A program made the position numbers and the translations under genes. The notes below the pieces were generated by a model. It saw nothing but the letters and a program-made list of their open reading frames with translations. It was not told the origin of the DNA and made no database searches. Positions 37,901 through 56,819 of a stretch of 64,000 nucleotides of DNA are shown here, piece after piece (position 1 is the first letter of the stretch; each line of letters begins with the position of its first letter). Source of the stretch: Rhodovibrionaceae bacterium GXU_MW_A322 (GTDB taxonomy: Bacteria > Pseudomonadota > Alphaproteobacteria > Kiloniellales > DSM-21159); the NCBI GenBank assembly GCA_052078155.1, contig JBQJBP010000006.1:34581-98580 (forward strand), written 5' to 3'.

Positions 37901-40900
37901 TGCTGAAGGGTTTTGGACAGGCGGGCAACCACCTGCGCCGCCAGCAGGGATTGGCCACCAAGGTCAAAGAAGGAGGCGTCGGGAGAAACAGCCGTTAGAC
38001 CCAGCACCTCTGCAAAGAGCGCACAAATGAGTTGCTGGCGACCGGAAGATGCAGGGGCGGCTGTGTCCTTATCCTCTGCTTGCTGCGGAATCTCAGCAGC
38101 AGGCAGGCGCTTTCGGTCGATCTTTCCGGCGGGGTTGAGGGGGAAGTCCTCCAGAAAGACCAAACTGTTGGGACGCATGTACTCCGGCAGGCGTCGGGCC
38201 AGGCGGTTTTTCAGATCCTGTCGCAACTGTGGCAAGCTGCCGCCTGCTGCGGCACTTGGGATCAGATAGGCGGCCAGACTGTCATCCTGTTTGACCACCA
38301 GAGCTTCTTTTACATCCGGGTGGGACAGCAGGTTTTCTTCGATTTCTCCCGGCTCAATGCGGAAGCCTCTCAGCTTGATCTGATGGTCTTTGCGCCCCAG
38401 GAAAGCCAGCTGGCCGTCTTGTTGCCAGGTTGCCAGATCTCCAGTGGCGTAGAGCCGAAGGTTTTGCTGGAAAGGCGCGGTGTCAAAAGCCGCTGCCGTC
38501 TTGTCGGGGGCATTGTGGTAGCCGCGCGCCAGCCCCGGTCCGGCAATGAAGAGTTCCCCGCTCACGCCTTCCGGCTGCGGGGCTTTTCTGTCGTCCAGAA
38601 CGAAGCAGGACCAGCCGGGCAGGGGGCGGCCAAGAGGCAATGGGGCATCTGTGCTCAGGTCCAGATTGGTGAAGTCGCAGTAACTGGACCAGATGGTGGC
38701 TTCCGTTGGTCCATAGAGATTGACGGCTTTGCTGCCCCAGGCTTGCAGCTGTCGGGCCAGATCCGGTTGCAGCGCTTCCCCACCGCAGTAGAGTGTCGGG
38801 CGGTGAGGGGCTGTCCATTCTGCGCTTTGCAGCAGTCGGTAGCTGCTGGGGGTGGCCTGCAGCAGGGTTGCAGCCTGATCATCCAGCAGGCGGGCCAGAG
38901 CCAGACCATCTTTGCTGATATCTTCTGGAACCAGCAGGAGGGCCGCCCCCTTGCGCAAGGGGGCAAAGAGCTCAAACAGCGAGATGTCAAATGTGACGAT
39001 GGTGATTGCAGCCAGCGTATCGTTCGGGGTCACCGCCCCCAGGGCCTGTTCCATGGCCTGATGGAAGGCGGTAAAAGAGGCCTGCTCGACCAGCACTCCC
39101 TTGGGTTTTCCGGTTGAACCGGAGGTGTAGAGCAGATAGGCAGCAGAACCGGCGTCTGGCCAGGGGGGCGCTGTTTGCCTCTGCGAAGCTGAGGGATCTG
39201 CTGTTTGCGCTAGCACCTCTGTCAGGGACAGCGTCAGGTGATTGTAACGCTGATGGAGCGGATCCTGCCCGGTGGTGTCGTCGCAAAGGATGAGCCGGGG
39301 CATGGCATCCTGCAGGATCAGGCGGCGACGCGCCTCCGGATGTCCCGGGTCCAGAGGAAGGAAGGCTGCTCCGCTGCGCCATACGGCCAGCATGGCAATC
39401 AGAACCAGTGGGCTGCGCGGCAGAGCCAGGGCGACGATATCTTCCGGCCCGATGCCCTGCCGTATCAGACTCTGGCTTAGTCGTTCTGCTGCGTTTTGCA
39501 GGTCCTGATAGCTGAGATTTTCGCCATGGGGCCACATGACGGCTGTTGCCGTTCCGGAAAGGTCAGCCTGGGCCCAGATCTCCTGCAGCACGCTTTGGCC
39601 ACTGGCCAGCAGAGGCGCCCCGACGGCAGTTTCTGTCAAGAGGCGCGCCTGCTCCGGCCCTGTCAGCAGGGAGTGGCTGTTGAGAGGTGCTTCAGGAGCC
39701 TGCAGAACCGAAGAAATCAGCTGCTTGAACTGGGAGATCAGCCGTTCGATCCCCTGGTGGCTGAAAAGGTCGCTGTTGTATTCAAAGGCGCCTGTCAGGA
39801 TCTTCTGACCGCTGTCGTTGCTGGCTTCTTCCAGATAGAGCGATAAATCCAGTTTGGCGCTCCTGCTTTTCAACAGGCGCTGGCTGCAGGACAGGCCAGG
39901 GAAGGTCAGGCTTTTTTCAAGGGCTCCCTGGCTGTGGCTGTCCAGAGTAAAGAGCACCTGGAAAAGCGGGGCATGGGCCAGACTGCGGTCCGGCTGCAGA
40001 GCTTCCACCACCTGTTCAAAGGGGCAGTCGGCATGCTGGTAGGCAGCCAGAGCGCTGTGGCGGGTTTGCTCCAGCAGATCCAGGAATGTCAGGTCATCGG
40101 TGGGACGCAGACGCAACACCAGAGAGTTCACAAAGAGGCCGATCAGCGGCTCCAGCGCCGTCATCCCGCGCCCGGCCGTCGGGGTACCCAGTGGAATGTC
40201 GTCGCCCGCCCCCAGACGTTGCAGCAGCAGGGAAAACAGCCCGGCCAGCGTCATGAAGAGCGTGCAGCCTCTTTGCCGTCCCAGCTGTTGCAGATCAACC
40301 AGTTCGTCAGGGCTGAAACTCAGGGTACAGAGCCCCCCTTCGTAGCTCTGGAGGGCTGGGCGGGCCTTGTCAAATGGCAGATTCAATGAGGCCGGCAGGT
40401 CGGCCAGCTGTTCAGTCCAGTAGGTCAGGTCCTTTTGAACCTGTTTGTCTGCCAGGGCATCCCGTTGCCAGCTGCAGTAATCCCGGTAGGTCAGCGAAAG
40501 AGCCGGAGCCGTTTCTGCCGTTTGCGTGACGATCCGCCTGTATTCGCGGCTCAGCCCCTCCGCCAGGACCCCAATAGACCAGCCATCGCAGGCAATGTGA
40601 TGCAGCAGGATAAGAAGGGACCAGTTTTCTTCAGACCGCTGGAACAAGGTCAGGCGAACCGGCCAGTCCTTTTGCAGGTCAAAGGGCTGGTGCGCGGCAG
40701 TTTCAATGACTTCTTCCTGATCCTGCTGGTTCAGATCAGACAGGTCTTTGTGGCTGAATGGCAGGTTACCAACCGGATCAACTACCTGCTGCGGTCCCTG
40801 ATCACTGTCCATGATCCGGCTGCGCAGAACCTCCTGCTGCTCAATCACCTGAGCCAGCGCCCCTTCAAGGGCGGCTTTGTCCAGAGGACCGGAGATGTCC

Positions 40901-43900
40901 AGAAGCAGAGGCACGAGATAGGCTTGCTGGATGCCCTTTCCGCCCAGCTGATCGAGGAACCAGAGACGCTCCTGTTGATGAGACAGCGGGAACAGACCAT
41001 CAGCAGAGGTGATCTGACTTGTTGTTGCTATGGGACGCGCAGTTCCGGACAGGGGGGTGCTTTGCCGGGTCGCCAGGACCAACGCCAGGCCCGCTGCAGT
41101 CGGGTTTTCGAAAATCAGCTGCAGGGGAAAATCTTCTCCCCAGAGTTCGCTCAGGCGATTGGCAGCCTGGGCCGCGAGCAGGGAATGTCCACCCAGGACG
41201 AAGAAATCGGCTTCGGGATCCAGCTTGTCCAGTCCCAGAACTTCCGCAAAAACGGCTGATACCAGTTCTTCTTCGCCGGAACGGGCTGCTCTGCCCGAGC
41301 CGCTGCTCACCCGTCTTTGCGGTGGCGGCAGGGCGTCTCGGTCGATCTTGCCGGACGGGGTAAGGGGAAAAGACTCCAGCAATGTGAAGTGGGCGGGCAC
41401 CATATAGGCTGGCAACACCTGTGCCGCTCGGGCTCTCAGCTCTTCGGTCAGGACCTGTTCTGAGGCCGCACTGTTTTCTGAAGTCACCAGATAGGCGAGC
41501 AGTGTCTGATCTTTGGCCAGAACGAGGGACTGTTCGATGGCCGGGTGGCTGTCCAGGCAGGCTTCGACTTCACCGGGTTCAATACGGAAACCGCGCAGTT
41601 TGATTTGCTGGTCCCGCCGTTCAATGAACTCCAGCACCCCATCATTGCGCCAGCGGGCCAGATCACCTGTTCTGTAGAGCCGCTCCCCGGGACGGAAGGG
41701 GTTCGGCTGAAAGGAGTCCCGGCTGCGTTCCGGCTGGTTGAGATATTCACGCGCAACGCCGACACCGCCCACACAGAGTTCCCCGATGACCCCTTCCGGC
41801 ATGGGGCTGAGATTGTCATCCAGAACATAGGTGTAGACATCCGGCATAGGCCGCCCAATGGGCAAAGTGGCGGCGGGGCGCTGTTCCGTGGTTGCGCCTG
41901 TTGTTGCCACTTCAAAGGTGGTGGCACAGACAGAAACTTCGGTGGGGCCATAGGCGTTTATGAAATGAAGGGCGGCCCCTTCCGGGCTGTCTTTCCAGCG
42001 TTGGGCAACCTGCGGCGGGCAGGGCTCTCCGGCTGATATGACCACCTTCAGGCTGCGATAGTCTTGCGGATCCATCAAAGCCAGGGCGCTGGGTGGCAGC
42101 GTGACGTGGGTAACGTCTTGCCGGGTGATCAGGGATTTCAGGGCGGCACCTGGCAACAGTTGTTCCGGTGCGGCCAGAACCAGTTGAGCCCCGGCGCCCA
42201 GTGTCACAAACACTTCCGATACAGCGGCATCAAAAGCCGGGGTGGCAAACTGCAACACCCGGGCATTGGCGGAGAGATGAAAGGCGGGAATCTGACCGGC
42301 GATCAGGTTCGCCAGTCCGGCCTGTTCAATCACCACACCTTTGGGCTGGCCGGTCGAGCCGGAGGTGAAGATGACATAAGCGGCCTGGGTTTCTTTGATG
42401 TCTGAAAGATCTTCCAGGCCCAGCGGGGGCAGGGCTTCAGCCTTTTGCTTTAGATCATCCAGCGTGAGAGCCCGCACCGTGTCGGGCAGGGGCAGGGCCT
42501 CTGCCTGATCCGACAGGTATCCGGCCAGTTCCCCCTGTTGAACAATGGTCAGGCGCCTTTGCCGGGGATGGCCGGGGTCCAGCGGGACAAAGGCTGCGCC
42601 TGTCATCAGCACCGCCAGTTGGGTGATCACCAGATCAAGTCCGCGCGGCAGCGCCACGGCGATCCTGTCTTCAGTCGCTAGGCCTTCCTGCTTGAGAGCT
42701 GCGGCCAGCTTTCCAGCACTTTTCGCCAGCTCACCATAGCTGACCAGATGATCTTCCCAGACCAGAGCCGGGGTTCCCGGTTTTTCTGCTGCCAGTTTCA
42801 GAATGCGCTGGGCGGCAAGCGGGGGGCGCTGGCTGTGGCTGCTTTCTCTTGGCCAGTGTTCCGTCAGCTGACGGTAGACCTGGGGCGGCAGCAGGGTGCG
42901 GCTCTGTCCCGAAACCTCCGGATTGGCAGCGATGTCCTTCAGCAGAAAGGTCAGATCGCGGGCGATGATCCGGATCTGATCTTCTTCGAAGATGTCCCGG
43001 CGATAGGCGAATTCCAGCGTGATGTCCTGCTCATCGTGATATTCCCGCACAAAGAGCGAAAGGGGGGTCTGCTGGTCCTGATTTGTTATGGCCACGGCCT
43101 CTGCCGGGGCTGAATCAAATGACAGGGGGTAATCCTGAAGTTCAAAAGACAGGGCGATGTCAAACAGCCGGTTGCGTCCCTGGGCCAGAGCCCCGCTTTG
43201 GCGAATGACCTCGGCCAGAGAAACGGGCAGATGGCGATAGCTTTGTTTTACTTCTCGCGCCACCTGGCCCATCAGGTCACTGGTGGGTTGAGCCAGGTCG
43301 AGCGACAGGGGCAGGGCGGCAACGGTGGTAAATAGCCCGACCGTTTCCTTTTCCTTCTTACCCGTTCGATTGCGCAGGGGCAGACCGACGACCAGGGCTT
43401 CAAGGTTCTGGGTTCTGACAAAATAGAGATAGAGGGCCGTCAGGAAAAAGTGCAGCGGGCTGGCGCTGTTCTGTCCGGCGACCTGGGTGATGCGGTCGAA
43501 ATCCTCGCGAGCCAGAGCCGTCTGCAAACTGGCTGACAGAGGCTTTTCAGCGGCTTTGACTGGCTGAAACAACGGAGGGGGCGGGTCCGAAAAGCGATCT
43601 TTCCAGTAGGCCTGTTTGGCGGACTGCCGGGCTGCCTGTCGGCTGTCCTCCACCGATTGCTTTTCGTCCTGGTCCAGCAGATAGCTGAAGAAGGAGGGGT
43701 GCGGGTCGGAGAGGGCGGGGGCATTGGGACTGCCGGATGCCGGGCCAAGGAAGCCCAGGGGGTTCTGGCTTTCCTGGCGTTGCCGGACACTCAGAGCCTG
43801 ATAGAGCTCACTCAGACGACGCAAGACGAGCCCGGTGCCCCAGCCGTCACAGATGAGGTGATGATAGACGTTGATCCAGCGGTAGTGCTGGTCGCTCAAT

Positions 43901-44301
43901 TTCAGAAGCTGGGAGCGGAACAGGGAACCCCCATCCAACTGGAAGGGGCGATCAAGCGCTTGCTGACAGAGTTGATCGGCTCTTCTGTCCGGCCTGTCTT
44001 CGCTGCTGATGTCTGTAAAGCTGAAGGCTGGTGCCTTGTCTTTTGTATCAGACAGCCGCCAGCGCGGGACAGGGCCGTCCTTTTCCAGGCGCAGACGCAG
44101 GGCGTCATTTTCCTCAATCAGCAGAGAAAGCGCCTGGGAAAAGCGGGCACGGTTCAGCGGCCCTTTGATCTCCAGATAGCCACCAATGTTGTAACTGGCG
44201 GTTTCAGCCAGCCTTTGCTGGTCAAACCAGATGTCTCTTTGAGCCGCAGACAGGATAGGCGAAGGCTGAGGCCTGTTGGCACTGTTCCTTTCCTTTCCCA
44301 T
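31921..44301 (-). CDS. non-ribosomal peptide synthetase, 4 modules: Cstarter-A1-T1-C2-A2-T2-C3-A3-T3-C4-T4-TE (last module lacks an A domain)
   Basis: - Four C domains with HHxxxDG (HHLICDGWG ~43.85 kb, HHIACDGWS ~40.58 kb, HHLAADGWS ~37.3 kb, HHLVADGWS ~34.0 kb).
- Three A domains (SGSTGxPKG cores at ~42.35, ~39.1, ~35.8 kb).
- Four T domains (FFVLGGHS ~41.2 kb, FFDLGGQS ~37.96 kb, FFELGGHS ~34.65 kb, FFECGGHS ~32.88 kb).
- C-terminal thioesterase (GWSFGGHLA).
- Single 4126-aa frame. Confidence 0.95.
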   Translation of the reverse strand: MGKERNSANRPQPSPILSAAQRDIWFDQQRLAETASYNIGGYLEIKGPLNRARFSQALSLLIEENDALRLRLEKDGPVPRWRLSDTKDKAPAFSFTDISSEDRPDRRADQLCQQALDRPFQLDGGSLFRSQLLKLSDQHYRWINVYHHLICDGWGTGLVLRRLSELYQALSVRQRQESQNPLGFLGPASGSPNAPALSDPHPSFFSYLLDQDEKQSVEDSRQAARQSAKQAYWKDRFSDPPPPLFQPVKAAEKPLSASLQTALAREDFDRITQVAGQNSASPLHFFLTALYLYFVRTQNLEALVVGLPLRNRTGKKEKETVGLFTTVAALPLSLDLAQPTSDLMGQVAREVKQSYRHLPVSLAEVIRQSGALAQGRNRLFDIALSFELQDYPLSFDSAPAEAVAITNQDQQTPLSLFVREYHDEQDITLEFAYRRDIFEEDQIRIIARDLTFLLKDIAANPEVSGQSRTLLPPQVYRQLTEHWPRESSHSQRPPLAAQRILKLAAEKPGTPALVWEDHLVSYGELAKSAGKLAAALKQEGLATEDRIAVALPRGLDLVITQLAVLMTGAAFVPLDPGHPRQRRLTIVQQGELAGYLSDQAEALPLPDTVRALTLDDLKQKAEALPPLGLEDLSDIKETQAAYVIFTSGSTGQPKGVVIEQAGLANLIAGQIPAFHLSANARVLQFATPAFDAAVSEVFVTLGAGAQLVLAAPEQLLPGAALKSLITRQDVTHVTLPPSALALMDPQDYRSLKVVISAGEPCPPQVAQRWKDSPEGAALHFINAYGPTEVSVCATTFEVATTGATTEQRPAATLPIGRPMPDVYTYVLDDNLSPMPEGVIGELCVGGVGVAREYLNQPERSRDSFQPNPFRPGERLYRTGDLARWRNDGVLEFIERRDQQIKLRGFRIEPGEVEACLDSHPAIEQSLVLAKDQTLLAYLVTSENSAASEQVLTEELRARAAQVLPAYMVPAHFTLLESFPLTPSGKIDRDALPPPQRRVSSGSGRAARSGEEELVSAVFAEVLGLDKLDPEADFFVLGGHSLLAAQAANRLSELWGEDFPLQLIFENPTAAGLALVLATRQSTPLSGTARPIATTSQITSADGLFPLSHQQERLWFLDQLGGKGIQQAYLVPLLLDISGPLDKAALEGALAQVIEQQEVLRSRIMDSDQGPQQVVDPVGNLPFSHKDLSDLNQQDQEEVIETAAHQPFDLQKDWPVRLTLFQRSEENWSLLILLHHIACDGWSIGVLAEGLSREYRRIVTQTAETAPALSLTYRDYCSWQRDALADKQVQKDLTYWTEQLADLPASLNLPFDKARPALQSYEGGLCTLSFSPDELVDLQQLGRQRGCTLFMTLAGLFSLLLQRLGAGDDIPLGTPTAGRGMTALEPLIGLFVNSLVLRLRPTDDLTFLDLLEQTRHSALAAYQHADCPFEQVVEALQPDRSLAHAPLFQVLFTLDSHSQGALEKSLTFPGLSCSQRLLKSRSAKLDLSLYLEEASNDSGQKILTGAFEYNSDLFSHQGIERLISQFKQLISSVLQAPEAPLNSHSLLTGPEQARLLTETAVGAPLLASGQSVLQEIWAQADLSGTATAVMWPHGENLSYQDLQNAAERLSQSLIRQGIGPEDIVALALPRSPLVLIAMLAVWRSGAAFLPLDPGHPEARRRLILQDAMPRLILCDDTTGQDPLHQRYNHLTLSLTEVLAQTADPSASQRQTAPPWPDAGSAAYLLYTSGSTGKPKGVLVEQASFTAFHQAMEQALGAVTPNDTLAAITIVTFDISLFELFAPLRKGAALLLVPEDISKDGLALARLLDDQAATLLQATPSSYRLLQSAEWTAPHRPTLYCGGEALQPDLARQLQAWGSKAVNLYGPTEATIWSSYCDFTNLDLSTDAPLPLGRPLPGWSCFVLDDRKAPQPEGVSGELFIAGPGLARGYHNAPDKTAAAFDTAPFQQNLRLYATGDLATWQQDGQLAFLGRKDHQIKLRGFRIEPGEIEENLLSHPDVKEALVVKQDDSLAAYLIPSAAAGGSLPQLRQDLKNRLARRLPEYMRPNSLVFLEDFPLNPAGKIDRKRLPAAEIPQQAEDKDTAAPASSGRQQLICALFAEVLGLTAVSPDASFFDLGGQSLLAAQVVARLSKTLQQDVPLRLLFEAPTARGLEIALDGLGSSSRHKPVLQADPDKTTGPLTFQQERLWFLDNMNGDSDAPAPKGPDDRNRADSDKARLAYLMPVSLRLRGALDAAALQTALSALVARQPVLRTLIVQINGEICQKVDPAADQPLPLLSLAGLSEDEETRTIRGLAFQPFDLTQEWPLRACLLKRSDQDWTLLLTLHHLAADGWSLRWLHNNLPAAYQAALAPAQTSAGSKPGSSAVPVSYLDYARWQRQAQARGLFEPSLTYWKEKLSGLPELLDLPLDRPRAALQSYDGGACPFTIETETLVGLKALSKQAGTTLFMTLAAAFSLLLKRLGGGDDMALGTALAGRNHSELDELVGLFVNTLILRLQPQSHLTFSEFLKQVKTTALEAYGQGDVPFEQVVEALRPERSLSHNPLFQVMFALDEADSGPRQLTADLSLQEEHLESPTAKMDLSLHLREVTAPDEPAVLLGMMEYNSQIFDRQSVEGFCRLFSQLLAEVLENPDRTLADLPLLSPDQHQRLTEDWASGPDLPASPRPVILDIARAARNQPQELALLSEQESWSYARLWQAVEQLAKQIKAHGVESEDKVVLALPRRPLAIVALLAVWRAGACLLPLDPKQPAERRRLILEDAAPKLILTEKLNLTEPGACEDGLFQGYPCLDVTLTEPDAETSPLPTDPEEPPHGWRNNAAYLLYTSGSTGKPKGVTIEQGALADHQAGLEQVIALAPGDRTLETASLAFDTALDQILLPLRAGAGLVFLEDQAWTARELKRLSREFSITWLDLPTAYWRGLVSSWVEQPHLIPDSKLISLGGEAIRATDLDHWQQLAPAVRPRLINAYGPTEATVTATAREITDDNSHSHPFGASIGRPLAGRRCYVLDDNLQPVPVGVVGELCLGGIGLAREYHQRADLSAKSFPSDPYVKGARLYRTGDQARWRADGSIEFLGRRDHQIKLRGFRIEPGEIEACLTSHPDIEQALVLLRQEQLVAYLVPTSGCTNDGDALVPHLQQQLKQQLPDYMQPSHLLVLPAFALTPSGKIDRKALPSPTQQDTASVGQAPQNPLEQVLAELYETLLEQKQLTRTAHFFELGGHSLLALQMAARLSDHLGREIAPRRLFETPRICDLAESLAADNNGDSGVQEPASPALTPVAQQSPAPLSFQQERLWFLDRLGGEDAAQAYLIPLALKLTGQLDREALSKALDHLVRNQPQLRSRFLSQKGNPYLVTDALEDNTTSGRPADGSGPAVSGLLTERDLREVPRPLQQKHLAKAALRPFDLTKDWPIRAQLFQLSDSSWALIITLHHLVADGWSSGEIAEEISQAYKALLSGRESARSPAAISYVDYIHWQRNRRKAGVFDRELDFWERELAGSPTLLPLPLDHARPRQPSYRGAIHPLTFSGPQLAALNALSAENDCSLFMTMTASFAALLNHLGGGSDLPIGTVVAGRKDPALTSLVGLFVNTVVLRLTPKAGQSFTEFLSDVRTRALAAFEHDEVPFDQVVERLSPPRNLSANPLFQVMFTLDNHTPQLDSQRLDLPNLDVSRLELAPPIAKVDLSLFLEERENEQGQRELSGGFEYNSDLFEAETLNQMARTYESLVQQIVSSPDLPLFLAETLNKGSEAASESASTVLPGMSVSPGPESKGSEAETGDSSLLPSLLDIWQSILPPQAGNSALSSASNFFECGGHSLMAVQLAERLETWLQRPVPLSLVFEHPSARHLARALDQLPQESPPSNDPWLTVNSGGDGAPLICLPPATGYGLWAYGVSRHFSQARPVLSLQSNGLLSGSPDPEESLEELAERCLQQLQDKGILGSPSDRIALAGWSFGGHLAYALGQKLKASRGQVGSLIIIDAMAQTKDTASESPSPAPHRDSELFRALLSTDLPLDPASWHKATEEARLTLLLDLARGHPNLPPTLDLPGLQRMLSVTRKNSNALAAFHPDHWSGDLHLVRAKEEADGPALLHWDQLAQGAVHLHWVPGNHGSLVQGNNARHLAQIIETLLQ

Positions 44302-44358
44302 TTTTGTCTCCTCGTCTGGTGGCTCGCAACATCAAACAGACAGCATCAGAGGGCCGGT

Positions 44359-45660
44359 CTATTGCGGGATGACCCCCTGGACTTGGCTGGGTCGGGAATC
44401 AGAGGAGACCGGTGGCTGCGGAGGAACATCTTCAGCTGTTGATGTACTTTCTGCTGGAGAAGCCCCTTCTGCAGGTGTGGCAGGCTGCGACGCTGCTGCC
44501 GCTGCTGCGGCCGCTTCTGTTCCCTTTGCCACCACTGGGTTACCAGTCAGAGGATCGATGATGTAAGTTATAGAAGAGTCATTATCGTTTTTTAATCTGG
44601 CGGGACCCCGGCCGGGCACAGCTGGCCCCACCACCTTGTTCATTTCCTCCGAAACTTTTTGCAGAGCGGTATTGACCGCATCAACAATGTCTTCCGGGTT
44701 CTGTGGTTTCACAGCCGCCTGTGATTTCTTGTCGACAGCGGTCTGGCTGGCGCTGCCTTCCACCGGTGCCGAGCTGTCCCAGTTGCCCAGGATCAGGGGC
44801 ATGCCCTGCTCACCGGCGCCGATCACGACCATCTTGGCGTTATTGGACTCAGCCAGCCGCAGGGTGGCGTCGATGCCTTTCCAGCGCAGGTAATTCTCGT
44901 TGATGCCGGAGGTAACCGTTTCCTGGAAGACCCGGATCCCCGCCGCCTCAATGGCCTTGCGGTGGCTTTCCATGCGTTCGCGCTCCAGGATGAACTTGTA
45001 CTGCTCTGCCCTTTGGCGCTGGACGTTCTTCTGCGCAATGGCCATGCGGACCGTTTCCGGCAAGGTGACCGAGCGGATCAGCGTGTCTTCCACAAAGATG
45101 TAGTTGGGCGTGTTGGAATCCTGGTCAGACACCAGTTCCATGTTGCGGTGGGCCGCATCAGCGATGGCCAGCTGCAGATCTTCACGCTTGCCGGAATAGA
45201 GGGCTTCCGGCGTGTAGCGGGAAATCTCATGGCGCACCCGCGCCCCGATTTCCGGGGCAATCAGCGAGGTGATGAAGTCCGGGCCGACGTTCTTGTGCAG
45301 GAAGCCGATGGTTTCGGGATTGAGGCGATAGCGGGTTGAGACTTCGACCTGGACCAGCAGGCCATCCTGGGTCAGGGCATCCACGTTCACGACCATCTGC
45401 TGCAGCCGCATATCGTATACCTGGATTTTATCCCAGGGCAGGATGATCTTGGTGCCGGAATCGTAGTGCCAGGAGGTGATTGTGCCACCTAAGAACCGCA
45501 GCCACAGGGCCCCGGCATGACCGGCAGGCACAGTGATGAAGATGTAGGGGGCGAAAACCAACACCACGAAGACCACGATCAGGCTGGAAACTGACAGGCC
45601 CACATAGTTGCGTTTTACCCAGGCATTGAAGCCACGTTCGATCTTAGAGGACATGCGCAT
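44359..45660 (-). CDS. SPFH/band-7 (prohibitin/flotillin-like) membrane protein with Ala/Pro-rich C-terminal tail
   Basis: N-terminal TM (LIVVFVVLVFAPYIFI), SPFH domain (VNVDALTQDGLLVQVEVSTRYRL...), low-complexity tail (EAAAAAAAASQPATPAEG...PPQPP). Its start overlaps the last 17 nt of the upstream exporter gene. Confidence 0.8.
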   Translation of the reverse strand: MRMSSKIERGFNAWVKRNYVGLSVSSLIVVFVVLVFAPYIFITVPAGHAGALWLRFLGGTITSWHYDSGTKIILPWDKIQVYDMRLQQMVVNVDALTQDGLLVQVEVSTRYRLNPETIGFLHKNVGPDFITSLIAPEIGARVRHEISRYTPEALYSGKREDLQLAIADAAHRNMELVSDQDSNTPNYIFVEDTLIRSVTLPETVRMAIAQKNVQRQRAEQYKFILERERMESHRKAIEAAGIRVFQETVTSGINENYLRWKGIDATLRLAESNNAKMVVIGAGEQGMPLILGNWDSSAPVEGSASQTAVDKKSQAAVKPQNPEDIVDAVNTALQKVSEEMNKVVGPAVPGRGPARLKNDNDSSITYIIDPLTGNPVVAKGTEAAAAAAAASQPATPAEGASPAESTSTAEDVPPQPPVSSDSRPSQVQGVIPQ

Positions 45661-47278
45661 CTCCTCTCATTCTGGCTATGCGCCCTTCTTCCATCACGAT
45701 GCGCCCGTCACAATCATCAAAGTAGCGGTCGTCGTGGGTGACCGCGAGAATGGTTTTTCCTGAAGCTTTCAGGTCCGGCAGCATGACTTCATAGAATTTA
45801 CGCCGGAATTCCGGATCCTGATCGGCTGCCCATTCATCAAAGACGTAAATGGGGCGATCTTCAAGCAGTGCGATCACCATAGCCAGACGTTTCCGCTGTC
45901 CGCTGGACAGGGCTTTGGTGTCAAACTGGCCGTCGATCAGTTCCACCTTCTTTTCCAGTTCCATCAGTTTCAGCAATTCATCCAGCCGGTCCTGATCGAC
46001 TTCCCCCAGACCGTAAAGGCGCGGGAAAAGGTGAAAGTTGAAGAAGACGGTGGAGAAGAGACTTTGCAGCAGCTCCAGGTTCTTATGATCGATAAGCTTG
46101 TCGTCCACATAGATGGCCCCTTCTTTGGGGTGATAGAGGCCGGTGGCCATCATCAATAGCGTCGACTTGCCGGAGCCGTTGCCCCCGGAAATGAACAGGA
46201 TCTGGCCTTTGTGTACTTCGAAACTGCAGGGGCCGCAGCGGAAGCTCACGCCGTTTTCCCGGTCATGGTGTTCGTAGACGATGCCTTCAAAGCGGATGGT
46301 TTCAAAGTCCAGCAGTTCTTCGCCGGTGGCTTTGGGGGAGGTGGCGGCTTCCTTCAGCGTCTCTTCCATCCGAATCATCGACTCACAGGCGGCATTGGCC
46401 GTTGCCATGTTGGACATGACACCAACGACCGAGGTCACGGGCCCGATGATGAAGAGCACGATGGTGGTGGTTTTCAACAGCTCTTCGGAAAAGGTTTCGC
46501 CAAAAGCCGGCAGCAGAAAGACCAGTGCGGCAGCCAGCATGTAGAAGGTGGCCTGGGCCATGATGAAAAGCACAGACAGCTGCACGTCCACCTGGACCTT
46601 GTAGCGGGTCACCGTGTGGGAGACGATGTCGATGTAGGACGTCAGATCCCGGGAGCGCTTGTTGTGCAGCCGGTTTTCCTTAAAGCCGTCGATGGCGTCT
46701 GTCAGACCGTCGAACAGCTTGTTTTCTTCAACGATGGTTTTGTGGATGGTGGCGTTGGTTTCGCCCCATTTGCGCAGGTAGATGAAGATGGCCAGCGCCA
46801 TGATGGCAATGGCGAGATAGAAGGCCCAGAGCGACAGGATGGCCAGATAGATCATCGTAAAGAAGATCAGAATGGCCGATTGGACCGCCAGCACCATGGA
46901 ACCGGCCGTTTGGGAGATGACCTGGGGCTGACGGGTGATGTTGGTGAAAATGTTGGCTTTGCCGATGCGCTCAATGGAATCCAGATCGCACTGGCGGATG
47001 TAGTTGACCTGCCGGACCCGGTACTCGTGGATGATCCGTTCCACTTCCCCGGTGGTTGCCACGAAGATGTGCTTTTGGGTGATGGTGTAGATTGCCAGCA
47101 CCACCAGGAACATGGCCAGATACCAGAAATTGGATCCGTTGCCGTCGCTGACGTGGGCTGCCGCCGTGTTGACAACCCCCAGAATCAAGGCGTTGCTCAG
47201 TCCCGCAATCCCGGCGTAAAGGAGGATCTTACGCAGCGGAATGGACGAGTACTGCTGGAAATACCTCAGCAGAACCAT
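45644..47278 (-). CDS. ABC transporter, fused permease/ATPase, cyclic-peptide exporter type (SyrD/PvdE/YojI-like)
   Basis: 544 aa; 6-TM N-terminal half; Walker A (SGGNGSGKST), ABC signature (LSSGQRKRL), Walker B (IYVFDE); size and architecture of the SyrD-family cyclic peptide transporters. Confidence 0.85.
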   Translation of the reverse strand: MVLLRYFQQYSSIPLRKILLYAGIAGLSNALILGVVNTAAAHVSDGNGSNFWYLAMFLVVLAIYTITQKHIFVATTGEVERIIHEYRVRQVNYIRQCDLDSIERIGKANIFTNITRQPQVISQTAGSMVLAVQSAILIFFTMIYLAILSLWAFYLAIAIMALAIFIYLRKWGETNATIHKTIVEENKLFDGLTDAIDGFKENRLHNKRSRDLTSYIDIVSHTVTRYKVQVDVQLSVLFIMAQATFYMLAAALVFLLPAFGETFSEELLKTTTIVLFIIGPVTSVVGVMSNMATANAACESMIRMEETLKEAATSPKATGEELLDFETIRFEGIVYEHHDRENGVSFRCGPCSFEVHKGQILFISGGNGSGKSTLLMMATGLYHPKEGAIYVDDKLIDHKNLELLQSLFSTVFFNFHLFPRLYGLGEVDQDRLDELLKLMELEKKVELIDGQFDTKALSSGQRKRLAMVIALLEDRPIYVFDEWAADQDPEFRRKFYEVMLPDLKASGKTILAVTHDDRYFDDCDGRIVMEEGRIARMRGDAHVL

Positions 47279-47509
47279 GTTCTATCCCGCTCTCGTTTTG
47301 TCCTGTCGGCACCTGCGCCAGGCTCTGGCCAACTTACCATGATCCCCCCAAACAGATCGTCTTTACCCACTGACGATGTATCTCTGATCTCTGCCGCTTT
47401 CCGGCTGCCGGATACATCCTGTCTTTCTACATCAACTCAACAGCTCTTTTCCTTGGTGACAGGGCAGGCGTAACCCCACCCGCATCTCCCTTCTCAAAAG
47501 AGGCTGTGT

Positions 47510-47686
47510 TTAGCTCTTTGCTCTTGTGGAGGAACCGCGTTCTGCCCCCATCAAAAGTATGGCAAAGGTGACGACCGGTGTGACAACGATGGACAAGAGG
47601 AAATAGCCAACAAACCCAATGGTTTTGTGCCGGCCCATCCAGCCAACCGCGATCGACAGTAAGAGATAGATGAAAAAGTAAATCAT
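47510..47686 (-). CDS. small (58 aa) two-helix membrane protein, hypothetical
   Basis: Reverse-strand ORF MIYFFIYLLLSIAVGWMGRHKTIGFVGYFLLSIVVTPVVTFAILLMGAERGSSTRAKS read manually (below the 60-aa cutoff of the ORF track); two hydrophobic helices; 230 nt upstream of the exporter gene. Confidence 0.35.
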   Translation of the reverse strand: MIYFFIYLLLSIAVGWMGRHKTIGFVGYFLLSIVVTPVVTFAILLMGAERGSSTRAKS

Positions 47687-48127
47687 GCCAGTCGTGTCCC
47701 TTACCTAACGTCCCTGCCTTTTTGTTCTTTGTACTTCTGCCGCCGTTTTGATTGCGGCAAAAATCTCTGCTCAGTCGGCGCCTGTTCCGTTCCCGGAAGC
47801 AAAACTCTCACCGGAACCCTTTGCTTTAAGACTGCTTTTCACAGCCTGGCACTTTTGAGTGCTAAGGAGAGTTCTCTGCGTGGCGCGCCCTGGAAACATC
47901 CAGAGAAGCTCCCGACTGCGAAGACGTCACCCTGCAGCATTATCCTCAGCAGTTGCCAAGTCCCTGGCCGTAATCTCGCTTTTGGCTGAACCAAGAACCC
48001 TCAAAGGAATCGGCACCCGGCTTAGCTCCGCTGGTTGTCGCTGCAAACAGCTTGAGAAAAGCGCGGGTGCCGATGAGAAGAAACTCCAAGAACCTGGCCT
48101 GTACCAAAAGAAGAAGGGCCGGGCCTG

Positions 48128-48697
48128 TTAAGCCGCTTTAGCGCCACCCTTCTTGCCGCTGGCTTTGTTCCGCTCCATTTCCTTTTCGAATTCAGCGCGG
48201 AAGTGGGCTTTCATTTCTTCAGGATTGAAGTCCAGCAGCGTACCACCGGCTTCCAGGTGCTGAATGTAAACCCGGCCGATGGCGTAGGTGGCCGCAGCAG
48301 AGAAGCTGGGCATGGTCAGCAGCGCCAGCGGTGCACCAATCACCGGAATGGCTTTGATGGCAGAACCAACGGAGCCCCAGGTCAGCACGTTCGGCACGAT
48401 GCTGCCCAGCAGGGCAGTGATGATGTTCTTGGCGGTGTGCTCGCTGAAGGAGTGACCGTAGAGCTTGGACAGCTTGTTGATCATGTTCAGCTGAACGCCG
48501 GTTACCGTGGCCATGTCCAGGACAGGCACGGGAATGCAGCCCGCGCCAAAGGACCAGGCGCTCAGACGGCGAACCATGGATTGCGCTTCGGCAAGGCGAT
48601 GGGCTTCAGCGTCCACCAGGCTTTCGGGGGCATCAGCTTGATCAGCGGTATTTTCAACAGTGCTCATGTTCTTCTCCCTGCGGGACTTGTTTGTCAA
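48128..48697 (-). CDS. hypothetical protein, DUF697-like membrane-associated domain
   Basis: 189 aa; acidic N-terminus then amphipathic/hydrophobic core (AIKAIPVIGAPLALLTMPSFSAAATYAIGRVY) resembling DUF697 (YcjF C-terminal type); Lys-rich tail. Family assignment is tentative. Confidence 0.5.
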   Translation of the reverse strand: MTNKSRREKNMSTVENTADQADAPESLVDAEAHRLAEAQSMVRRLSAWSFGAGCIPVPVLDMATVTGVQLNMINKLSKLYGHSFSEHTAKNIITALLGSIVPNVLTWGSVGSAIKAIPVIGAPLALLTMPSFSAAATYAIGRVYIQHLEAGGTLLDFNPEEMKAHFRAEFEKEMERNKASGKKGGAKAA

Positions 48698-49221
48698 AGC
48701 CAGCGGCTGCTGGAGACCAGGGTCAGAAGAATGCCCTTATTCTATCGGAAGGTGTTGCAGCTGCAGCTCAACACTCAACTCCGGATTTCAGGGTGCCTTC
48801 TGACTTTACCCTCATTCAAATTCAACCACTCTCAGGCCTTACAGAACTTCCTTAGCCAGCAAGCAGATCCGGAAAACCCGGGCCTTCCATTTCATCTGCC
48901 TGTGCGTGACCAGATGTCGTCTGTTCAGCCTTTTGCCCAACGGTTCCAGCGGTTTGTTCCTATCCTGAAGGAAAAGAGACCGCGGGGTCCTGGATCAAAT
49001 CTATGACCAACCTGTGTGACTTGCCTGTCTTTTCAACGGACCAATCCACCGAGATCACAAATCGCATTTTTCTGCTCCGCGAGAGGCGTAGCACTCTCCA
49101 CTCTATTCTAACTGGATTATTAATGCTAGATGGGGAGACCCCTTTTTTGGCAAATTGTTCAAGTGCTAGAAGGGTTTGACATTACCTTTTTGCAAGAATT
49201 CTGGCGGGGAAGGACTTTCGG

Positions 49222-50586
49222 GTGGGCAGGCAGCAGACAGGCAGTTCAAGCAGGGCAAAGGCCCCCGGTCCCAAAGGTCTGGCGGGCATGGGGCTGATCA
49301 AGGCCTTTAACAAGAACGCCGCCGACGCGCTGCTGGATTTGAACCGTCATTACGGGGATCTGGTGCAGTTTACCTTTGCCGGTAACTTTAACAGTCTGGT
49401 GGCCCATCCTGATCAGATTCAGGAGGTCTTGATTGACAAAGCCTCTCTCTTTCAAAAGGGCCTGGTCTACAAAGCTTACGAGCCGCTGATCGGGCAGGGG
49501 TTGCTGACCAGCGACGGCGCTGTCTGGGAAAAGACGCGCCGAATCGCCGGGCCTTCCTTTAAGGGCCCTCGGCTCAAAAGCTTTGCAGCCACGGCCGCCC
49601 GCCTCAGTCAGAAACGAGCGGATGACTGGCTTAAGCAGGCCAAAGGCAACTGGCTGGATCTGGCCGTGGTGCCGGAAATGAACCGCCTGACGTTTGAGAT
49701 CATCTCGGAAGCGCTCTTTTCAGAAAATCTCTCCCTGGAAACCGATCGCCTGTTTGAAGCGCTCGATAAGGCCAACAAGGAAGGCACAGCGCGCATCCGC
49801 AGCCCTTTGAAATGGCCTTACCATTGGCCCACACCAGCCAACAAACGCTACCAGCGGGCCGTGGCCATTCTGGACGAGGTGGTGGAATTGATGGTGGAGC
49901 GGCGCCTGGGTATGGAGACGCCGCCTGACGACTATTTCACCACCCTGGTGGCGGCCATGACGGCCGGTGACATTGACCGCAAGATGGTGCGCGATCAGGT
50001 GCTGACTTTTCTCTTTGCCGGGCATGAAACCACCAGCAATGGACTGAGTTGGTCGCTGTACCTGCTGGCCGGACATCCGGCGGTCATGGAAGAGGCAGCC
50101 CAGGAAGTGGCGACCGTACTGGGCGACCGTCAGCCGGAGCAGGAGGATCTGGCAAAGTTGCCGTTCCTGAGGGCGGTTTTTGAAGAATCCATGCGGTTGT
50201 ATCCGCCCATCTACGCCCTGCAGCGCCGCTCTCTGGAGGATCTGGAGATTGGGGGCTATGCCATTCCGGCCAGCACAGGTGTGACCATTTCTCCTTATGT
50301 CACTCACCGCCATCCGGCTTTCTGGGACGATCCCGACGCCTTCAATCCGGAACGTTTTGTCGGGGAGGCTGTGCGCAGTCGACCCCGTCTGGCTTACCTG
50401 CCCTTTGGGGCGGGACCGCGGACCTGCATCGGCGCGAACTTTGCCATGGCGGAAGCTCTGGTGCTCTTGGTGGCCATCCTGCAGCGCTTTAAGCTGGTCT
50501 TGTGGGAGGATCAGCCGGTAGCCACCCGCCCGCTCATTTCCCTGGGCCCCGCTTCAGCTCTGCCGGTGAGGTTACTGCCGAAGTGA
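49222..50586 (+). CDS. cytochrome P450 monooxygenase
   Basis: I-helix AGHETTS, EESMRLYPP (ExxR-region), heme loop FGAGPRTCIGANFA; the start could be the MGLIKAF methionine at 49288 instead. Confidence 0.85.
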   Translation: MGRQQTGSSSRAKAPGPKGLAGMGLIKAFNKNAADALLDLNRHYGDLVQFTFAGNFNSLVAHPDQIQEVLIDKASLFQKGLVYKAYEPLIGQGLLTSDGAVWEKTRRIAGPSFKGPRLKSFAATAARLSQKRADDWLKQAKGNWLDLAVVPEMNRLTFEIISEALFSENLSLETDRLFEALDKANKEGTARIRSPLKWPYHWPTPANKRYQRAVAILDEVVELMVERRLGMETPPDDYFTTLVAAMTAGDIDRKMVRDQVLTFLFAGHETTSNGLSWSLYLLAGHPAVMEEAAQEVATVLGDRQPEQEDLAKLPFLRAVFEESMRLYPPIYALQRRSLEDLEIGGYAIPASTGVTISPYVTHRHPAFWDDPDAFNPERFVGEAVRSRPRLAYLPFGAGPRTCIGANFAMAEALVLLVAILQRFKLVLWEDQPVATRPLISLGPASALPVRLLPK

Positions 50587-50616
50587 AGGCAGACCCTTGT
50601 CTCGGAACGAGAGTGC

Positions 50617-51309
50617 CTAGAAAAAACTTGGGCCACCGCAGGGACCGTTGATTAGCTGTTCCCCCACTGTCGTTCTGAAACTCAATGACTTTTGATCTGC
50701 AATTGTAGCGATAATCACTTTGCAGTTGCTCGGGTTGTTTTCCTTAGGGCCAAAGGCAAGTGTCATAGAGGGGAAAACAATGGTGGCAGCCAGAGCTTCG
50801 TGGGTTCCCAATGAGATAGCTCTAGCCCGATTGTGGATTAGGGCTCGGAGCAAATAGGCTTCTTCATTCAAGGTAAGGGGGTGTTGGCCAGGGGCAATAT
50901 CAACCACACAGTTGCGATTGTAGTTGTCCCAGGTTTTTGACTCTTGTTCGATGATCGCGAAACGCGCGCCATTTTTGCCTAACACCCGCCAACGGTCGCT
51001 TTGAGTGCCGTATTTGTACTTCCACTGGTAGGCCTCCTCATCTGAGAGGGCTATCTCTGAAAGGCCGTCCTTATCGATTGCGATGCCATTTTCCACAGCA
51101 TTGCGACAACGGGTAAGCAGATTCTCCCATTGTCTGGCCAGTGTTTTCAGATGGAATTCATCTATCGTGCTGTTGACCGAATTTGCGGTCGATCTGTTGC
51201 CGTTCTGCACTATGGCTGTGGAAACGCCCACGGCTAAAACGGAAAAGAAAATTGTAACAGCGATAATGTAGCGCAACTTTCGGCGTGCGTTGACTTTGGG
51301 TGTCGACAT
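50617..51309 (-). CDS. hypothetical N-terminally membrane-anchored protein encoded in a low-GC patch
   Basis: 230 aa, N-terminal TM (YIIAVTIFFSVLAVGVSTAIV), no recognisable motifs; local GC (~50%) clearly below the flanking ~62%. Confidence 0.55.
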   Translation of the reverse strand: MSTPKVNARRKLRYIIAVTIFFSVLAVGVSTAIVQNGNRSTANSVNSTIDEFHLKTLARQWENLLTRCRNAVENGIAIDKDGLSEIALSDEEAYQWKYKYGTQSDRWRVLGKNGARFAIIEQESKTWDNYNRNCVVDIAPGQHPLTLNEEAYLLRALIHNRARAISLGTHEALAATIVFPSMTLAFGPKENNPSNCKVIIATIADQKSLSFRTTVGEQLINGPCGGPSFF

Positions 51310-51321
51310 TTTGCGTGCGTC

Positions 51322-52383
51322 TCAGTTTTTCAATAGATCTTTGATTTCAGCTTCTTCCGCCGCGTCGCACCAGCGGGCCAGAGCCAGAGAAAAGCGCTCA
51401 AAAGCGGGGCCACTGTCAAAACCCAGCTTGGCGCCGGAAATGACAGTGCGGGCCCAAAGAAAGGCAATGCCCTTGCGATAGTCCTGGGTCACAGTCTCCA
51501 GGCTGTAGTTGTCGACCCCGGCGGCAGTCAGGCTGTCGTGGTAGGCCGCCAGCAACCCGGTAAGGGCTTCTGGCCGGTGGTGGAGGAAGTTTCCGGCAGA
51601 GAGGTAAGCCAGGTCAAAGCCGCCACGACCTTTGATGACCGTCTGCCAGTCCAGCAGGGCCCAGCCGCCATCAGCAAAAAACAGCAGATTGTCCAGCCGC
51701 AGATCACCGTGCAGCACTGTGGCCGGTTCCTGGCTCAGATCTGATCTCAGCTTTGTCAGGGCTGTTCCGGCTGTCGGGGCCAGGTGGTGCAACCAGTCGG
51801 GCAGCTGTTCGCCAAAGGTCTTTTCAAAGGCTGGCCAGCAAGCCTGATAGAAGGCTGCAATGTCCGGGCCCTGATCCAGTCGGGGCAGCCAGTCCGGCAG
51901 TGCTTTGCCATCAGGCCTTTGCCAGAAGTGGGCGTGGAACGCTGCAAGATCTTTGACGATAAAGCTGGCCTTCTTTGGTGCCATGCCGCGCAACTGGTCG
52001 CCGGGGCAGCCGTCCTTCAGGTCTTCCAGCAGCAGGATCGGGGCTGCGTCGTCTCCGCCGCTGGCCAGCAGTTGTGGAATGGTCAGTGGGGAACCATCGG
52101 CCAATTGCTCCAGAAAGAGCTTTTCGCGCTGATAGAAGCCCATCTGGCTCATCATCTGCCGGATTTGAGGGTCCTGTGACGGCAGCTTAACCACCAGACT
52201 GTCGGTGGGGCCTGATGTAAGCGACACCCGCGCCAGTTCGCCGGAAAAGCCGCTGTCTTCCCCCAGCGCTGTCACGGTGATGGGACCGGGAGGCTGGTTC
52301 AGAATCCCGGCAATCCACTCAGCTGTTATGTCGTTGCGCCCAAATGCCTTTTCGGCCGAAGCCTGCTCCCCCTGCTGTGTCAT
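51322..52383 (-). CDS. phosphotransferase-family kinase (APH / CHK / ecdysteroid-kinase-like)
   Basis: 353 aa; catalytic HGDLRLDN and DWQ motifs with an N-terminal nucleotide-binding lobe; start overlaps the stop of the upstream FAAL gene. Confidence 0.75.
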   Translation of the reverse strand: MTQQGEQASAEKAFGRNDITAEWIAGILNQPPGPITVTALGEDSGFSGELARVSLTSGPTDSLVVKLPSQDPQIRQMMSQMGFYQREKLFLEQLADGSPLTIPQLLASGGDDAAPILLLEDLKDGCPGDQLRGMAPKKASFIVKDLAAFHAHFWQRPDGKALPDWLPRLDQGPDIAAFYQACWPAFEKTFGEQLPDWLHHLAPTAGTALTKLRSDLSQEPATVLHGDLRLDNLLFFADGGWALLDWQTVIKGRGGFDLAYLSAGNFLHHRPEALTGLLAAYHDSLTAAGVDNYSLETVTQDYRKGIAFLWARTVISGAKLGFDSGPAFERFSLALARWCDAAEEAEIKDLLKN

Positions 52384-56528: not shown

Positions 56529-56819
56529 CTCTTGTCATGTCTGGCAGAGGTGTTTTTTCGCTGCGGAATGGGACCCGGTGGACTGTCACCGATTTGTCTC
56601 ATTTCGCTCAGGCCAAGTGCAGTTTTTTGACATCTTTGTGCATTTTTGCACCGAAAGCCAGAGGAAAGCCTGGGCTCAGATTAGCCCGTTTTGGGGGGTA
56701 ACTACATTAAAAGTCAGCCATCTTTTCAATTTGTTGGGTGAAGAATCTGACATGACGCTTATACTACTGTCAGATGATCCGTTGAGGCCGACCTGGCCCG
56801 ACGCAGACATCTTCTGGCG

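Follow-up and report, generated by a model that had tools for sequence, protein, structure and literature searches.

The 64,000-nucleotide (nt) stretch of Rhodovibrionaceae bacterium GXU_MW_A322 analyzed here, referred to as the window, carries on its minus strand a gene for a membrane protein of the SPFH (Band_7) superfamily, set between an ATP-binding cassette (ABC) exporter and a non-ribosomal peptide synthetase (NRPS). The exporter open reading frame (ORF) occupies 45644..47278 in the ORF list (544 amino acids, aa) and its TAA stop ends at 45644; the SPFH ORF lies at 44359..45660 (433 aa from the first ATG, 431 aa from the likely start at 45654), with a stop ending at 44359; and the NRPS (31921..44301, 4126 aa) follows directly downstream from an ATG at 44301. 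The minus-strand spacer of 57 nt between the last two genes (44302..44358) carries the NRPS Shine-Dalgarno sequence, GAGGAG. The ORF list and the sequence confirm the gene order, ORF coordinates and 57-nt gap given in an earlier note on this DNA, and with them its description of an SPFH gene that sits, with overlapping reading frames, inside a biosynthetic cluster, the exporter on one side and the NRPS on the other. Two further same-strand genes for small membrane proteins, a DUF697 protein and a protein with two transmembrane (TM) segments, lie upstream of the exporter; both were absent from that note.

The exporter and SPFH genes meet at a translational-coupling junction (45644..45664, minus strand), where the SPFH Shine-Dalgarno sequence GGAG (45661..45664) and start codon fall within the last codons of the exporter. 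Read directly, the junction is ...GAGAGGAG ATG CGC ATG TCC TCT AAG..., and its start region, GGAG-ATGCGC-ATG, offers two candidate ATGs: the first, at 45660, gives a 17-nt overlap with the exporter and the second, at 45654, an 11-nt overlap. The second is the more probable start because it stands 6 nt past the GGAG and agrees with the NCBI entry P0001, a 431-aa 'prohibitin family protein [Rhodovibrionaceae bacterium A322]'. The overlap reported in the earlier note is therefore real, though by Shine-Dalgarno spacing and the NCBI start it is likelier to be 11 nt long than the 17 nt stated there. A terminator scan found no terminator-like hairpin on the coding strand between the exporter, SPFH and NRPS genes, the 57-nt spacer included. 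A sigma-70 promoter scan, whose model is uninformative for an alphaproteobacterium, returned 0 sites, and an Rfam scan of 44000..49400 gave no match.

The SPFH protein matches Pfam Band_7 (PF01145) at E 4.5e-22 and 79.4 bits (cutoff 23.6), with residues 43-224 aligned to profile positions 2-171 of 176, which places it in the SPFH superfamily. In a profile search of the PDB, prohibitin 1/2 ranked at the top (E 7e-21 to 1e-17), ahead of HflC (2e-8) and then erlin (3e-5). The AlphaFold2 (AF2) model has a mean predicted local distance difference test score (pLDDT) of 77.5, with values of ~90 or more across most of residues 11-250 and lower values, 77-84, near residues 171-190. It comprises an N-terminal helix, an SPFH alpha/beta domain (41-199) and long helices at 202-252 (50 residues) and 255-271; the core then closes with a conserved ...VVIGxGxxGxPLILG motif and is followed by ~140 aa of disordered tail in which Ala, Pro, Val and Ser abound. 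The only hydrophobic segment is a TM helix at about residues 26-44. These features of the model, from the TM helix and SPFH domain to the pair of long helices and the conserved C-terminal motif, are typical of cage-forming SPFH proteins.

Foldseek searches against the PDB likewise placed a human prohibitin complex first (8rrh, E 1.5e-17), with prohibitin (PHB) complexes filling the top four places, the HflK/C, erlin and stomatin cages ranking behind them, and flotillin structures giving only weak fold matches (E 3.6e-9, TM-score 0.29-0.30). The protein is closest to prohibitins, shares their architecture of TM helix, SPFH domain, coiled coil and C-terminal cap, and belongs with the prohibitin subfamily. 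The earlier label of 'flotillin/prohibitin-family' thus holds for an SPFH membrane protein of prohibitin-like character and fails for flotillin, an identity that we rejected on the weak fold matches together with the predicted periplasmic orientation described below. We also rejected an HflK/HflC identity: an NCBIfam scan of the protein returned 0 families at E<=0.01, leaving the HflK and HflC models unmatched, and the cassette has a single SPFH gene rather than a pair. The family is of modest size, with 569 proteins at E<=1e-30 and 3141 at E<=1e-3 among 1.84 billion representatives searched.

Topology was predicted from the charges that flank the single TM helix. Across 43 homologs, the 15 residues preceding the helix contain on average 3.3 lysines and arginines versus 0.7 following it, with the excess on the N-terminal side in 40/43 proteins and reversed in none. 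The positive-inside rule predicts a cytoplasmic N terminus and a periplasmic body, and since the positive charges are enriched ahead of a single N-terminal helix, only ~20 residues would remain in the cytoplasm. Beyond PLILG, the homologs carry a disordered tail of 34-283 aa (median 89) rich in P/A/G/S/T, in which we found no conserved motif beyond that common to the closest relative. In the window, this tail (44359..44781, residues ~293-433) includes a predicted helix at residues 322-343 (pLDDT 81-89) that is common only with this closest relative (P0002).

The exporter is an ABC half-transporter, with a transmembrane domain followed by a nucleotide-binding domain, and it matches Pfam ABC_tran as well as the NCBIfam model TIGR01194, 'cyclic peptide export ABC transporter', at 314.2 bits (cutoff 286.2). 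The latter match is near full length, with residues 20-535 on profile positions 25-548 of 554, and assigns the exporter, at subfamily level and on sequence, to the family that includes SyrD, PvdE and YojI; searches against the PDB returned generic ABCB1/MsbA-type relatives only. The DUF697/YcjF-family small membrane protein (48128..48697, minus strand, 189-aa ORF) matches Pfam PF05128 at E 2.3e-9 and 37.6 bits (cutoff 27.7). Its NCBI record (P0256, 'YcjF family protein') has 179 aa, in which case the start is probably 48667; all of its listed homologs carry PF05128, and its AF2 model is all-helical (pLDDT 82.5). The two-TM protein (47510..47686, minus strand, 58 aa, MIYFFIYLLLSIAVGWMGRHKTIGFVGYFLLSIVVTPVV...) is without family assignment. 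In tblastn searches, its ORF was matched to small ORFs between DUF697 and ABC/SPFH genes elsewhere, at E down to 1e-13, and its homologs were called independently as an 80-aa gene in Tistrella and a 54-aa gene in Puniceibacterium. A homologue from another locus (L025, cluster c30) fell in no Pfam family; the window's own 58-aa protein was unscanned.

Short DUF697/YcjF proteins (~160-200 aa) show an association of their own with NRPS clusters in different phyla. The four distant homologs that we sampled (L163, L164, L165 and L166, where L numbers denote surveyed loci), which include a Prolixibacteraceae metagenome-assembled genome (MAG) and a Deferribacterota genome, all adjoin NRPS-cluster genes: NRPS genes in three and, in L165, genes for a type II thioesterase (TEII) and a phosphopantetheinyl transferase (PPTase). 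ABC and SPFH genes are also present in 3/4 of them.

We surveyed the surroundings of related SPFH genes with a profile of 43 homologs (A1) scanned against a single genome for each GTDB species. A relative is encoded at 554 loci or more, and the 80 closest were examined with 10-kb flanks, with neighbors found by tblastn with the window proteins and by clustering, and with Pfam run on cluster representatives. Codon-position gene calling left some antisense calls in GC-rich loci (clusters c5, c17 and c19), so the reported counts are based on tblastn with defined queries. These samples, here and below, are the top-ranked subset of larger match sets and include 14 Azospirillum-type and 7 Thalassospira-type loci. 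Homologs of the exporter and of the small TM protein were each present in 66/80 loci and of DUF697 in 61/80; all three occurred together in 42/80, and every one of the 80 loci had at least one. The exporter was immediately upstream of the SPFH gene on the same strand in 45/80 loci, and the exporter stop and SPFH start overlapped (-17 to -1 nt) or were separated by <=2 nt at 36/43 junctions, with ATG starts assigned heuristically; 13 of these 36 junctions are of Azospirillum type and hence non-independent. The arrangement goes far beyond chance, since dozens of species-level genomes, as well as metagenome contigs, show the same adjacency. The earlier note had called for such a synteny survey, and its outcome is a conserved partnership with SyrD/PvdE-family exporters rather than a housekeeping neighbor.

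Loci with independent gene calls agree on the overlapping ABC stop and SPFH start (L161, L162, L164, L165 and L166). On the Tistrella mobilis chromosome, genes for DUF697 (191 aa), the 80-aa protein, the ABC exporter (560 aa) and Band_7 (483 aa, 4-nt overlap) run in one direction, preceded by an oppositely oriented NRPS gene and an RND pump and followed by TEII and, further on, PPTase genes that are again oppositely oriented. In Puniceibacterium sp. IMCC21224, the order is PPTase, DUF697, the 54-aa protein, ABC, Band_7 (17-nt overlap) and TEII, all in the same orientation. This cassette adjoins an NRPS and a megasynthase with AMP-binding, KS, AT, ACP, aminotransferase and C among its listed domains, which we take to be a mycosubtilin/iturin-like lipo-initiation architecture. 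Limisalsivibrio acetivorans (Deferribacterota) has DUF697, ABC, Band_7 (292 aa), periplasmic binding protein and NRPS genes in one orientation with 4-nt overlaps, and two metagenome contigs carry DUF697, ABC, Band_7 (281 aa), Peripla_BP_6 and TEII genes in one orientation along with a PPTase gene. Over residues 9-293, the Limisalsivibrio SPFH protein shares 33% identity with the window protein, and its sequence stops precisely at PLILG. In such tail-less variants, a Peripla_BP_6/ANF_receptor gene comes directly after the SPFH gene (L164, 9041..10216; L165, 9325..11109; L166, 9328..11115), and this placement of a periplasmic binding protein gene lends further support to a periplasmic site of action.

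The SPFH genome set spans the Alphaproteobacteria (Rhodospirillales, Hyphomicrobiales and Rhodobacterales), Betaproteobacteria (Janthinobacterium, Noviherbaspirillum and Rhodocyclaceae) and Gammaproteobacteria (Marinomonas and Arenicella), and also includes Acidobacteriota (Thermoanaerobaculia) and one Acidimicrobiia MAG (Actinomycetota).

Genes for NRPS or polyketide synthase (PKS) cores were found within 10 kb in 29 of the 53 SPFH loci with complete flanks, and any NRPS/PKS, PPTase, TEII or MbtH gene in 37/53; the recurrent neighbor families were PPTase, type II thioesterase, MbtH and NRPS-like proteins. NRPS/PKS clusters make up only a few per cent of a typical proteobacterial genome, and judged against this typical share, such genes are strongly enriched near the SPFH cassette. 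The cassette is also present where no NRPS lies within 6-10 kb, and where there is one it may be on either strand or side. The association of the SPFH gene is with the exporter cassette (DUF697, small TM protein, ABC and SPFH) rather than with the NRPS.

Azospirillum-type loci (L044, L048, L051, L053, L054, L056, L065-L067, L070, L071, L076 and L078) carry an IcmF-related_N protein and MscS instead of NRPS-related genes. There, the SPFH gene is flanked by two different ABC half-transporter genes, and an MscS-like channel is also encoded at the locus. The IcmF-related_N protein (~1100 aa), which has an N terminus like that of type VI secretion system TssM, occurs with a 250-aa partner, and no NRPS is found within 10 kb. 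These loci represent a different use of the same SPFH/DUF697 module. Elsewhere, two Reyranella-like loci (L004 and L006) have a gene for an outer-membrane efflux protein (Pfam OEP) directly after the SPFH gene, and a YcaO cyclodehydratase gene lies near the cassette in L004 and L010, the latter having other clusters in common with L011. These neighbors hint that the cassette may also serve in contexts of RiPP-type peptides (made on ribosomes and modified after translation) or of tripartite efflux.

A second survey started from the exporter, with an alignment (A2) scanned against JGI metagenome contigs. The 80 closest matches, 31-44% identical to the window exporter, were examined, and counts are based on the 67 contigs with >=900 nt downstream. 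An SPFH gene was immediately downstream on the same strand in 37/67 and elsewhere in the locus in 9/67. Over 73 adjacent pairs, the ABC and SPFH identity matrices were correlated (Pearson 0.90, Spearman 0.59, Mantel p 0.001), and the top-3 nearest neighbors overlapped between the two proteins in 63/73 pairs. This co-divergence fits inheritance or transfer as a unit, with shared species phylogeny adding to the signal.

We lean, with slightly better than even confidence, towards a role for the SPFH protein as one part of a conserved four-gene export cassette, in which it would act on the exporter as a periplasm-facing oligomeric scaffold. The SPFH/exporter pairing, with the two small membrane proteins, recurs by PKS/NRPS clusters in several phyla and gives the impression of an accessory to the export machinery that has yet to be described. 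In the mechanism we propose, the cassette (DUF697/YcjF-like protein, small two-TM protein, cyclic-peptide-type ABC exporter and prohibitin-like SPFH protein) travels with NRPS/PKS clusters, and its overlapping stop and start codons would cause the SPFH protein to be made in step with the exporter. Anchored by its single N-terminal helix, with its body in the periplasm, the SPFH protein would most likely assemble, on the periplasmic side of the inner membrane, into a ring or dome, by analogy with prohibitin and HflK/C. This ring would enclose or organize the ABC exporter and probably also both small membrane proteins; it could stabilize the exporter, and it could confine the membrane patch that receives an amphiphilic acyl-polyketide-peptide product, with presumed effects on export or self-protection. 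The overlapping frames, co-divergence, cage-forming fold, periplasmic orientation and two small partners together point to one multi-subunit inner-membrane machine.

Known SPFH systems offer partial parallels. The mitochondrial inner-membrane prohibitins PHB1/PHB2 (PDB 8rrh, 9o9z, 9unl and 9urz), the best sequence and fold match to the window protein, share with it an N-terminal anchor, SPFH domain, long coiled-coil helices and conserved C-terminal cap, as well as, by prediction, a body on the non-cytoplasmic side. The window protein differs in being only ~17% identical, in its variable disordered tail and in its conserved genomic partner, which is an ABC exporter with two small membrane proteins and not an AAA protease; because it is encoded by a single gene, it would, if ring-forming, be a homo-oligomer versus the PHB1/PHB2 heterodimer. 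The closest bacterial mechanistic analogue is HflK/HflC-FtsH of E. coli (PDB 7vhp, 7vhq, 7wi3 and 9cz2), in which an SPFH cage of the inner membrane, its domains in the periplasm, surrounds a membrane machine. Unlike that system, the cassette has one SPFH paralogue with no match to the HflK/HflC models, no protease family among the cassette-neighbor proteins scanned, and a transporter as its proposed client.

Stomatin and QmcA domains face the cytoplasm, unlike the window SPFH family with its predicted periplasmic placement. The stomatin/NfeD operons (such as E. coli QmcA-YbbJ, PDB 8z5g) likewise join an SPFH gene to small membrane partners, and stomatin-AQP1 (PDB 9zd2) is a precedent for an SPFH ring that binds a transport protein. 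Pfam scans of the ABC, NRPS and DUF697 neighbors found no NfeD family, the window's small TM protein being unscanned, and with ABC, NRPS, DUF697 and small TM proteins as neighbors we rejected a stomatin-NfeD operon identity. On the exporter side, the window protein, which passes the TIGR01194 cutoff, adjoins NRPS genes as SyrD and PvdE do. The classical Pseudomonas exporters are not known to be accompanied by SPFH, DUF697 or small-TM partners.

Several observations weigh against a scaffold dedicated to the exporter. Locus counts are phylogenetically non-independent because many congeneric species were sampled. The exporter was not found within 10 kb in 14/80 SPFH loci, and ~30% of full-flank loci, mainly of Azospirillum type, were without an NRPS-related gene within 10 kb. 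From the exporter side, SPFH was not found near 21/67 related exporters; five of these 21 loci have DUF697 and ABC without SPFH (L082, L103, L104, L124 and L134), and nine have NRPS genes (L082, L103, L119, L130, L139, L140, L145, L151 and L155). Because SPFH loci without the exporter and exporters without SPFH both occur, the partnership is frequent and not obligatory, and the cassette is modular. Gene order, coupling, conservation, fold class and the link to NRPS/PKS genes are observed here, and oligomerization (solely from ~17-20% identity to solved cages), topology, physical contact between the SPFH protein and the exporter, and any effect on export or self-protection are inferred.

A more specific form of this proposal, which we advance only tentatively, is that the four genes encode a hitherto unrecognized export organelle serving non-ribosomal peptides and polyketides, in which a homo-oligomeric prohibitin-like periplasmic dome would surround dedicated ABC exporters together with DUF697 and two-TM subunits. 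If so, the ABC transporter would be a new class of SPFH client, and the corralled membrane patch and periplasmic chamber would shield the producer from its amphiphilic product or channel the product onward. For both forms of the proposal, the exit of the product from a closed periplasmic dome is hard to account for.

We consider it possible, if rather unlikely, that the SPFH, DUF697 and small TM proteins instead form a membrane-integrity or self-protection module that buffers the inner membrane against the amphiphilic product of the cluster in the manner of flotillin or PspA, with no specific exporter complex. Protection of the membrane from the lipopeptide, the second role raised in the earlier note, is a possibility. 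This would suit the 11/80 loci that have all three without an exporter within 10 kb, among which Hyphomicrobium-type loci have TEII and PPTase genes adjoining the trio, as well as the short DUF697 proteins that adjoin NRPS genes even without SPFH or ABC (Prolixibacteraceae, L163). It also draws on the fatty-acyl loading enzymes carried by the window and Puniceibacterium clusters, which make lipopeptide-like products plausible. However, co-divergence and the stop/start overlap or near-contact at 36/43 junctions are more typical of subunits of a single complex than of an independent stress protein.

Quality control of the HflK/C type, in which turnover of the exporter or its small partners would be controlled by FtsH or some other membrane protease that the SPFH ring recruits or gates, is an improbable alternative. 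Prohibitin and HflK/C both work with AAA proteases, and HflC is a detectable relative (E 2e-8). Against this, Pfam detected no protease family among the scanned window neighbors and recurrent neighbor clusters, most neighbor ORFs being unscanned, and none appeared among the Pfam labels precomputed for the five loci with independent annotation, though FtsH could be encoded elsewhere. The 0 NCBIfam families, HflK/HflC included, argue in the same direction, as does the identity of the conserved partners, one ABC exporter with two small membrane proteins.

It is also quite improbable that the SPFH protein and its long Pro/Ala-rich tail act as a periplasmic adaptor that bridges the exporter to an outer-membrane channel in place of the membrane-fusion protein (MFP) found in tripartite ABC efflux systems. 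The OEP gene directly after SPFH in L004 and L006, the lack of an HlyD/MFP gene inside the cassette and the disordered, P/A/G/S/T-rich tail of 34-283 aa would all fit such a bridge. Yet OEP occurs in only 3/80 loci, the tail is not conserved and is absent in the Limisalsivibrio-type proteins that end at PLILG, and separate RND/MFP genes lie nearby in Tistrella.

The earlier note had proposed that the SPFH protein docks the cytoplasmic NRPS megasynthetase to the exporter, which we now regard as very improbable. The gene does lie between the two in the window, and SPFH is followed by an NRPS on the same strand in L003, L017, L034, L039 and L047, but the predicted N-in topology leaves ~20 cytoplasmic residues and puts the body in the periplasm, away from the NRPS; moreover, many loci are without an adjacent NRPS, and where present it is on either strand or side. 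A chance or housekeeping neighbor unrelated to the cluster, for which nothing speaks except the general abundance of SPFH genes in bacteria, was rejected by the synteny survey and is hardly credible given adjacency across Alpha-, Beta- and Gammaproteobacteria, Acidobacteriota, Actinomycetota and Deferribacterota with overlapping frames conserved.

The genes around the cassette belong to a biosynthetic cluster whose product, judging by its domains, is probably an acylated polyketide-peptide. The NRPS contains Condensation (x5), AMP-binding (x3), PP-binding (x4) and Thioesterase domains by Pfam. Beyond the DUF697 gene, we found a cytochrome P450 (49222..50586, plus strand, Pfam p450 E 6e-88); a 230-aa ORF (50617..51309, minus strand) that falls in no Pfam family and lacks homologs throughout the 80 related genome loci; and, by Pfam, an APH/EcKL-type kinase (51322..52383, minus strand), an unusual tailoring gene for such a cluster. 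Next is a 1381-aa fusion of AMP-binding (FAAL-like), complete acyl-CoA dehydrogenase and ACP domains (52383..56528, minus strand, Pfam), probably the acyl-starter unit of the cluster on the strength of its domains. A GTG start (52383) is reported for the fusion protein, with one base in common with the start-proximal end of the downstream kinase ORF. A modular type I PKS (KS, AT, KR, ACP, KS, AT ...; 56820..63998, plus strand, Pfam) is transcribed divergently from the acyl-starter gene. Because this PKS runs off the window, the hybrid PKS-NRPS cluster is larger than the window. The G+C content of the cassette, P450 and kinase region (44001..52000) is 0.547-0.571 versus 0.60-0.66 in the megasynthase flanks (32001..44000 and 52001..64000), so this accessory block may have a different history from the synthetase genes.

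Some elements of this arrangement are already known, namely TIGR01194 exporters that adjoin NRPS genes and SPFH rings with a defined membrane client (HflK/C-FtsH, PHB-m-AAA, stomatin with channels or AQP1, and QmcA-YbbJ). The same arrangement as in the window was mentioned for an NRPS/PKS island of Thalassobaculum sp. OXR-137 in a 2025 genome paper (PMC12016528); that mention is anecdotal and concerns one genome, with no survey, topology, DUF697 or small-TM genes. A survey of P. aeruginosa SPFH proteins mentions neither ABC transporter, NRPS, non-ribosomal nor pyoverdine (PMC13086221). Apart from OXR-137, our full-text searches, which covered subscription journals thinly so that an earlier description is possible, returned no systematic description of an SPFH-exporter cassette, and no relevant paper on SPFH or band 7 with NRPS, DUF697 with NRPS, or HflC with NRPS, lipopeptide or exporter. 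The conserved genetic joining of SPFH and a TIGR01194 exporter in a cluster-associated cassette that also includes DUF697 and a small TM protein appears to be new.

Little is understood of how Gram-negative producers export peptides and polyketides that are large and often membrane-active while sparing themselves damage, and weak export also limits heterologous production. A conserved cassette of SPFH protein and ABC exporter would be unexpected for specialists in natural-product export or SPFH biology. It would give bacterial SPFH biology a genetically linked client other than FtsH and would give genome miners a new marker of export or self-protection in NRPS/PKS clusters, and it would supply a gene set for co-expression on transfer of a cluster into another host.

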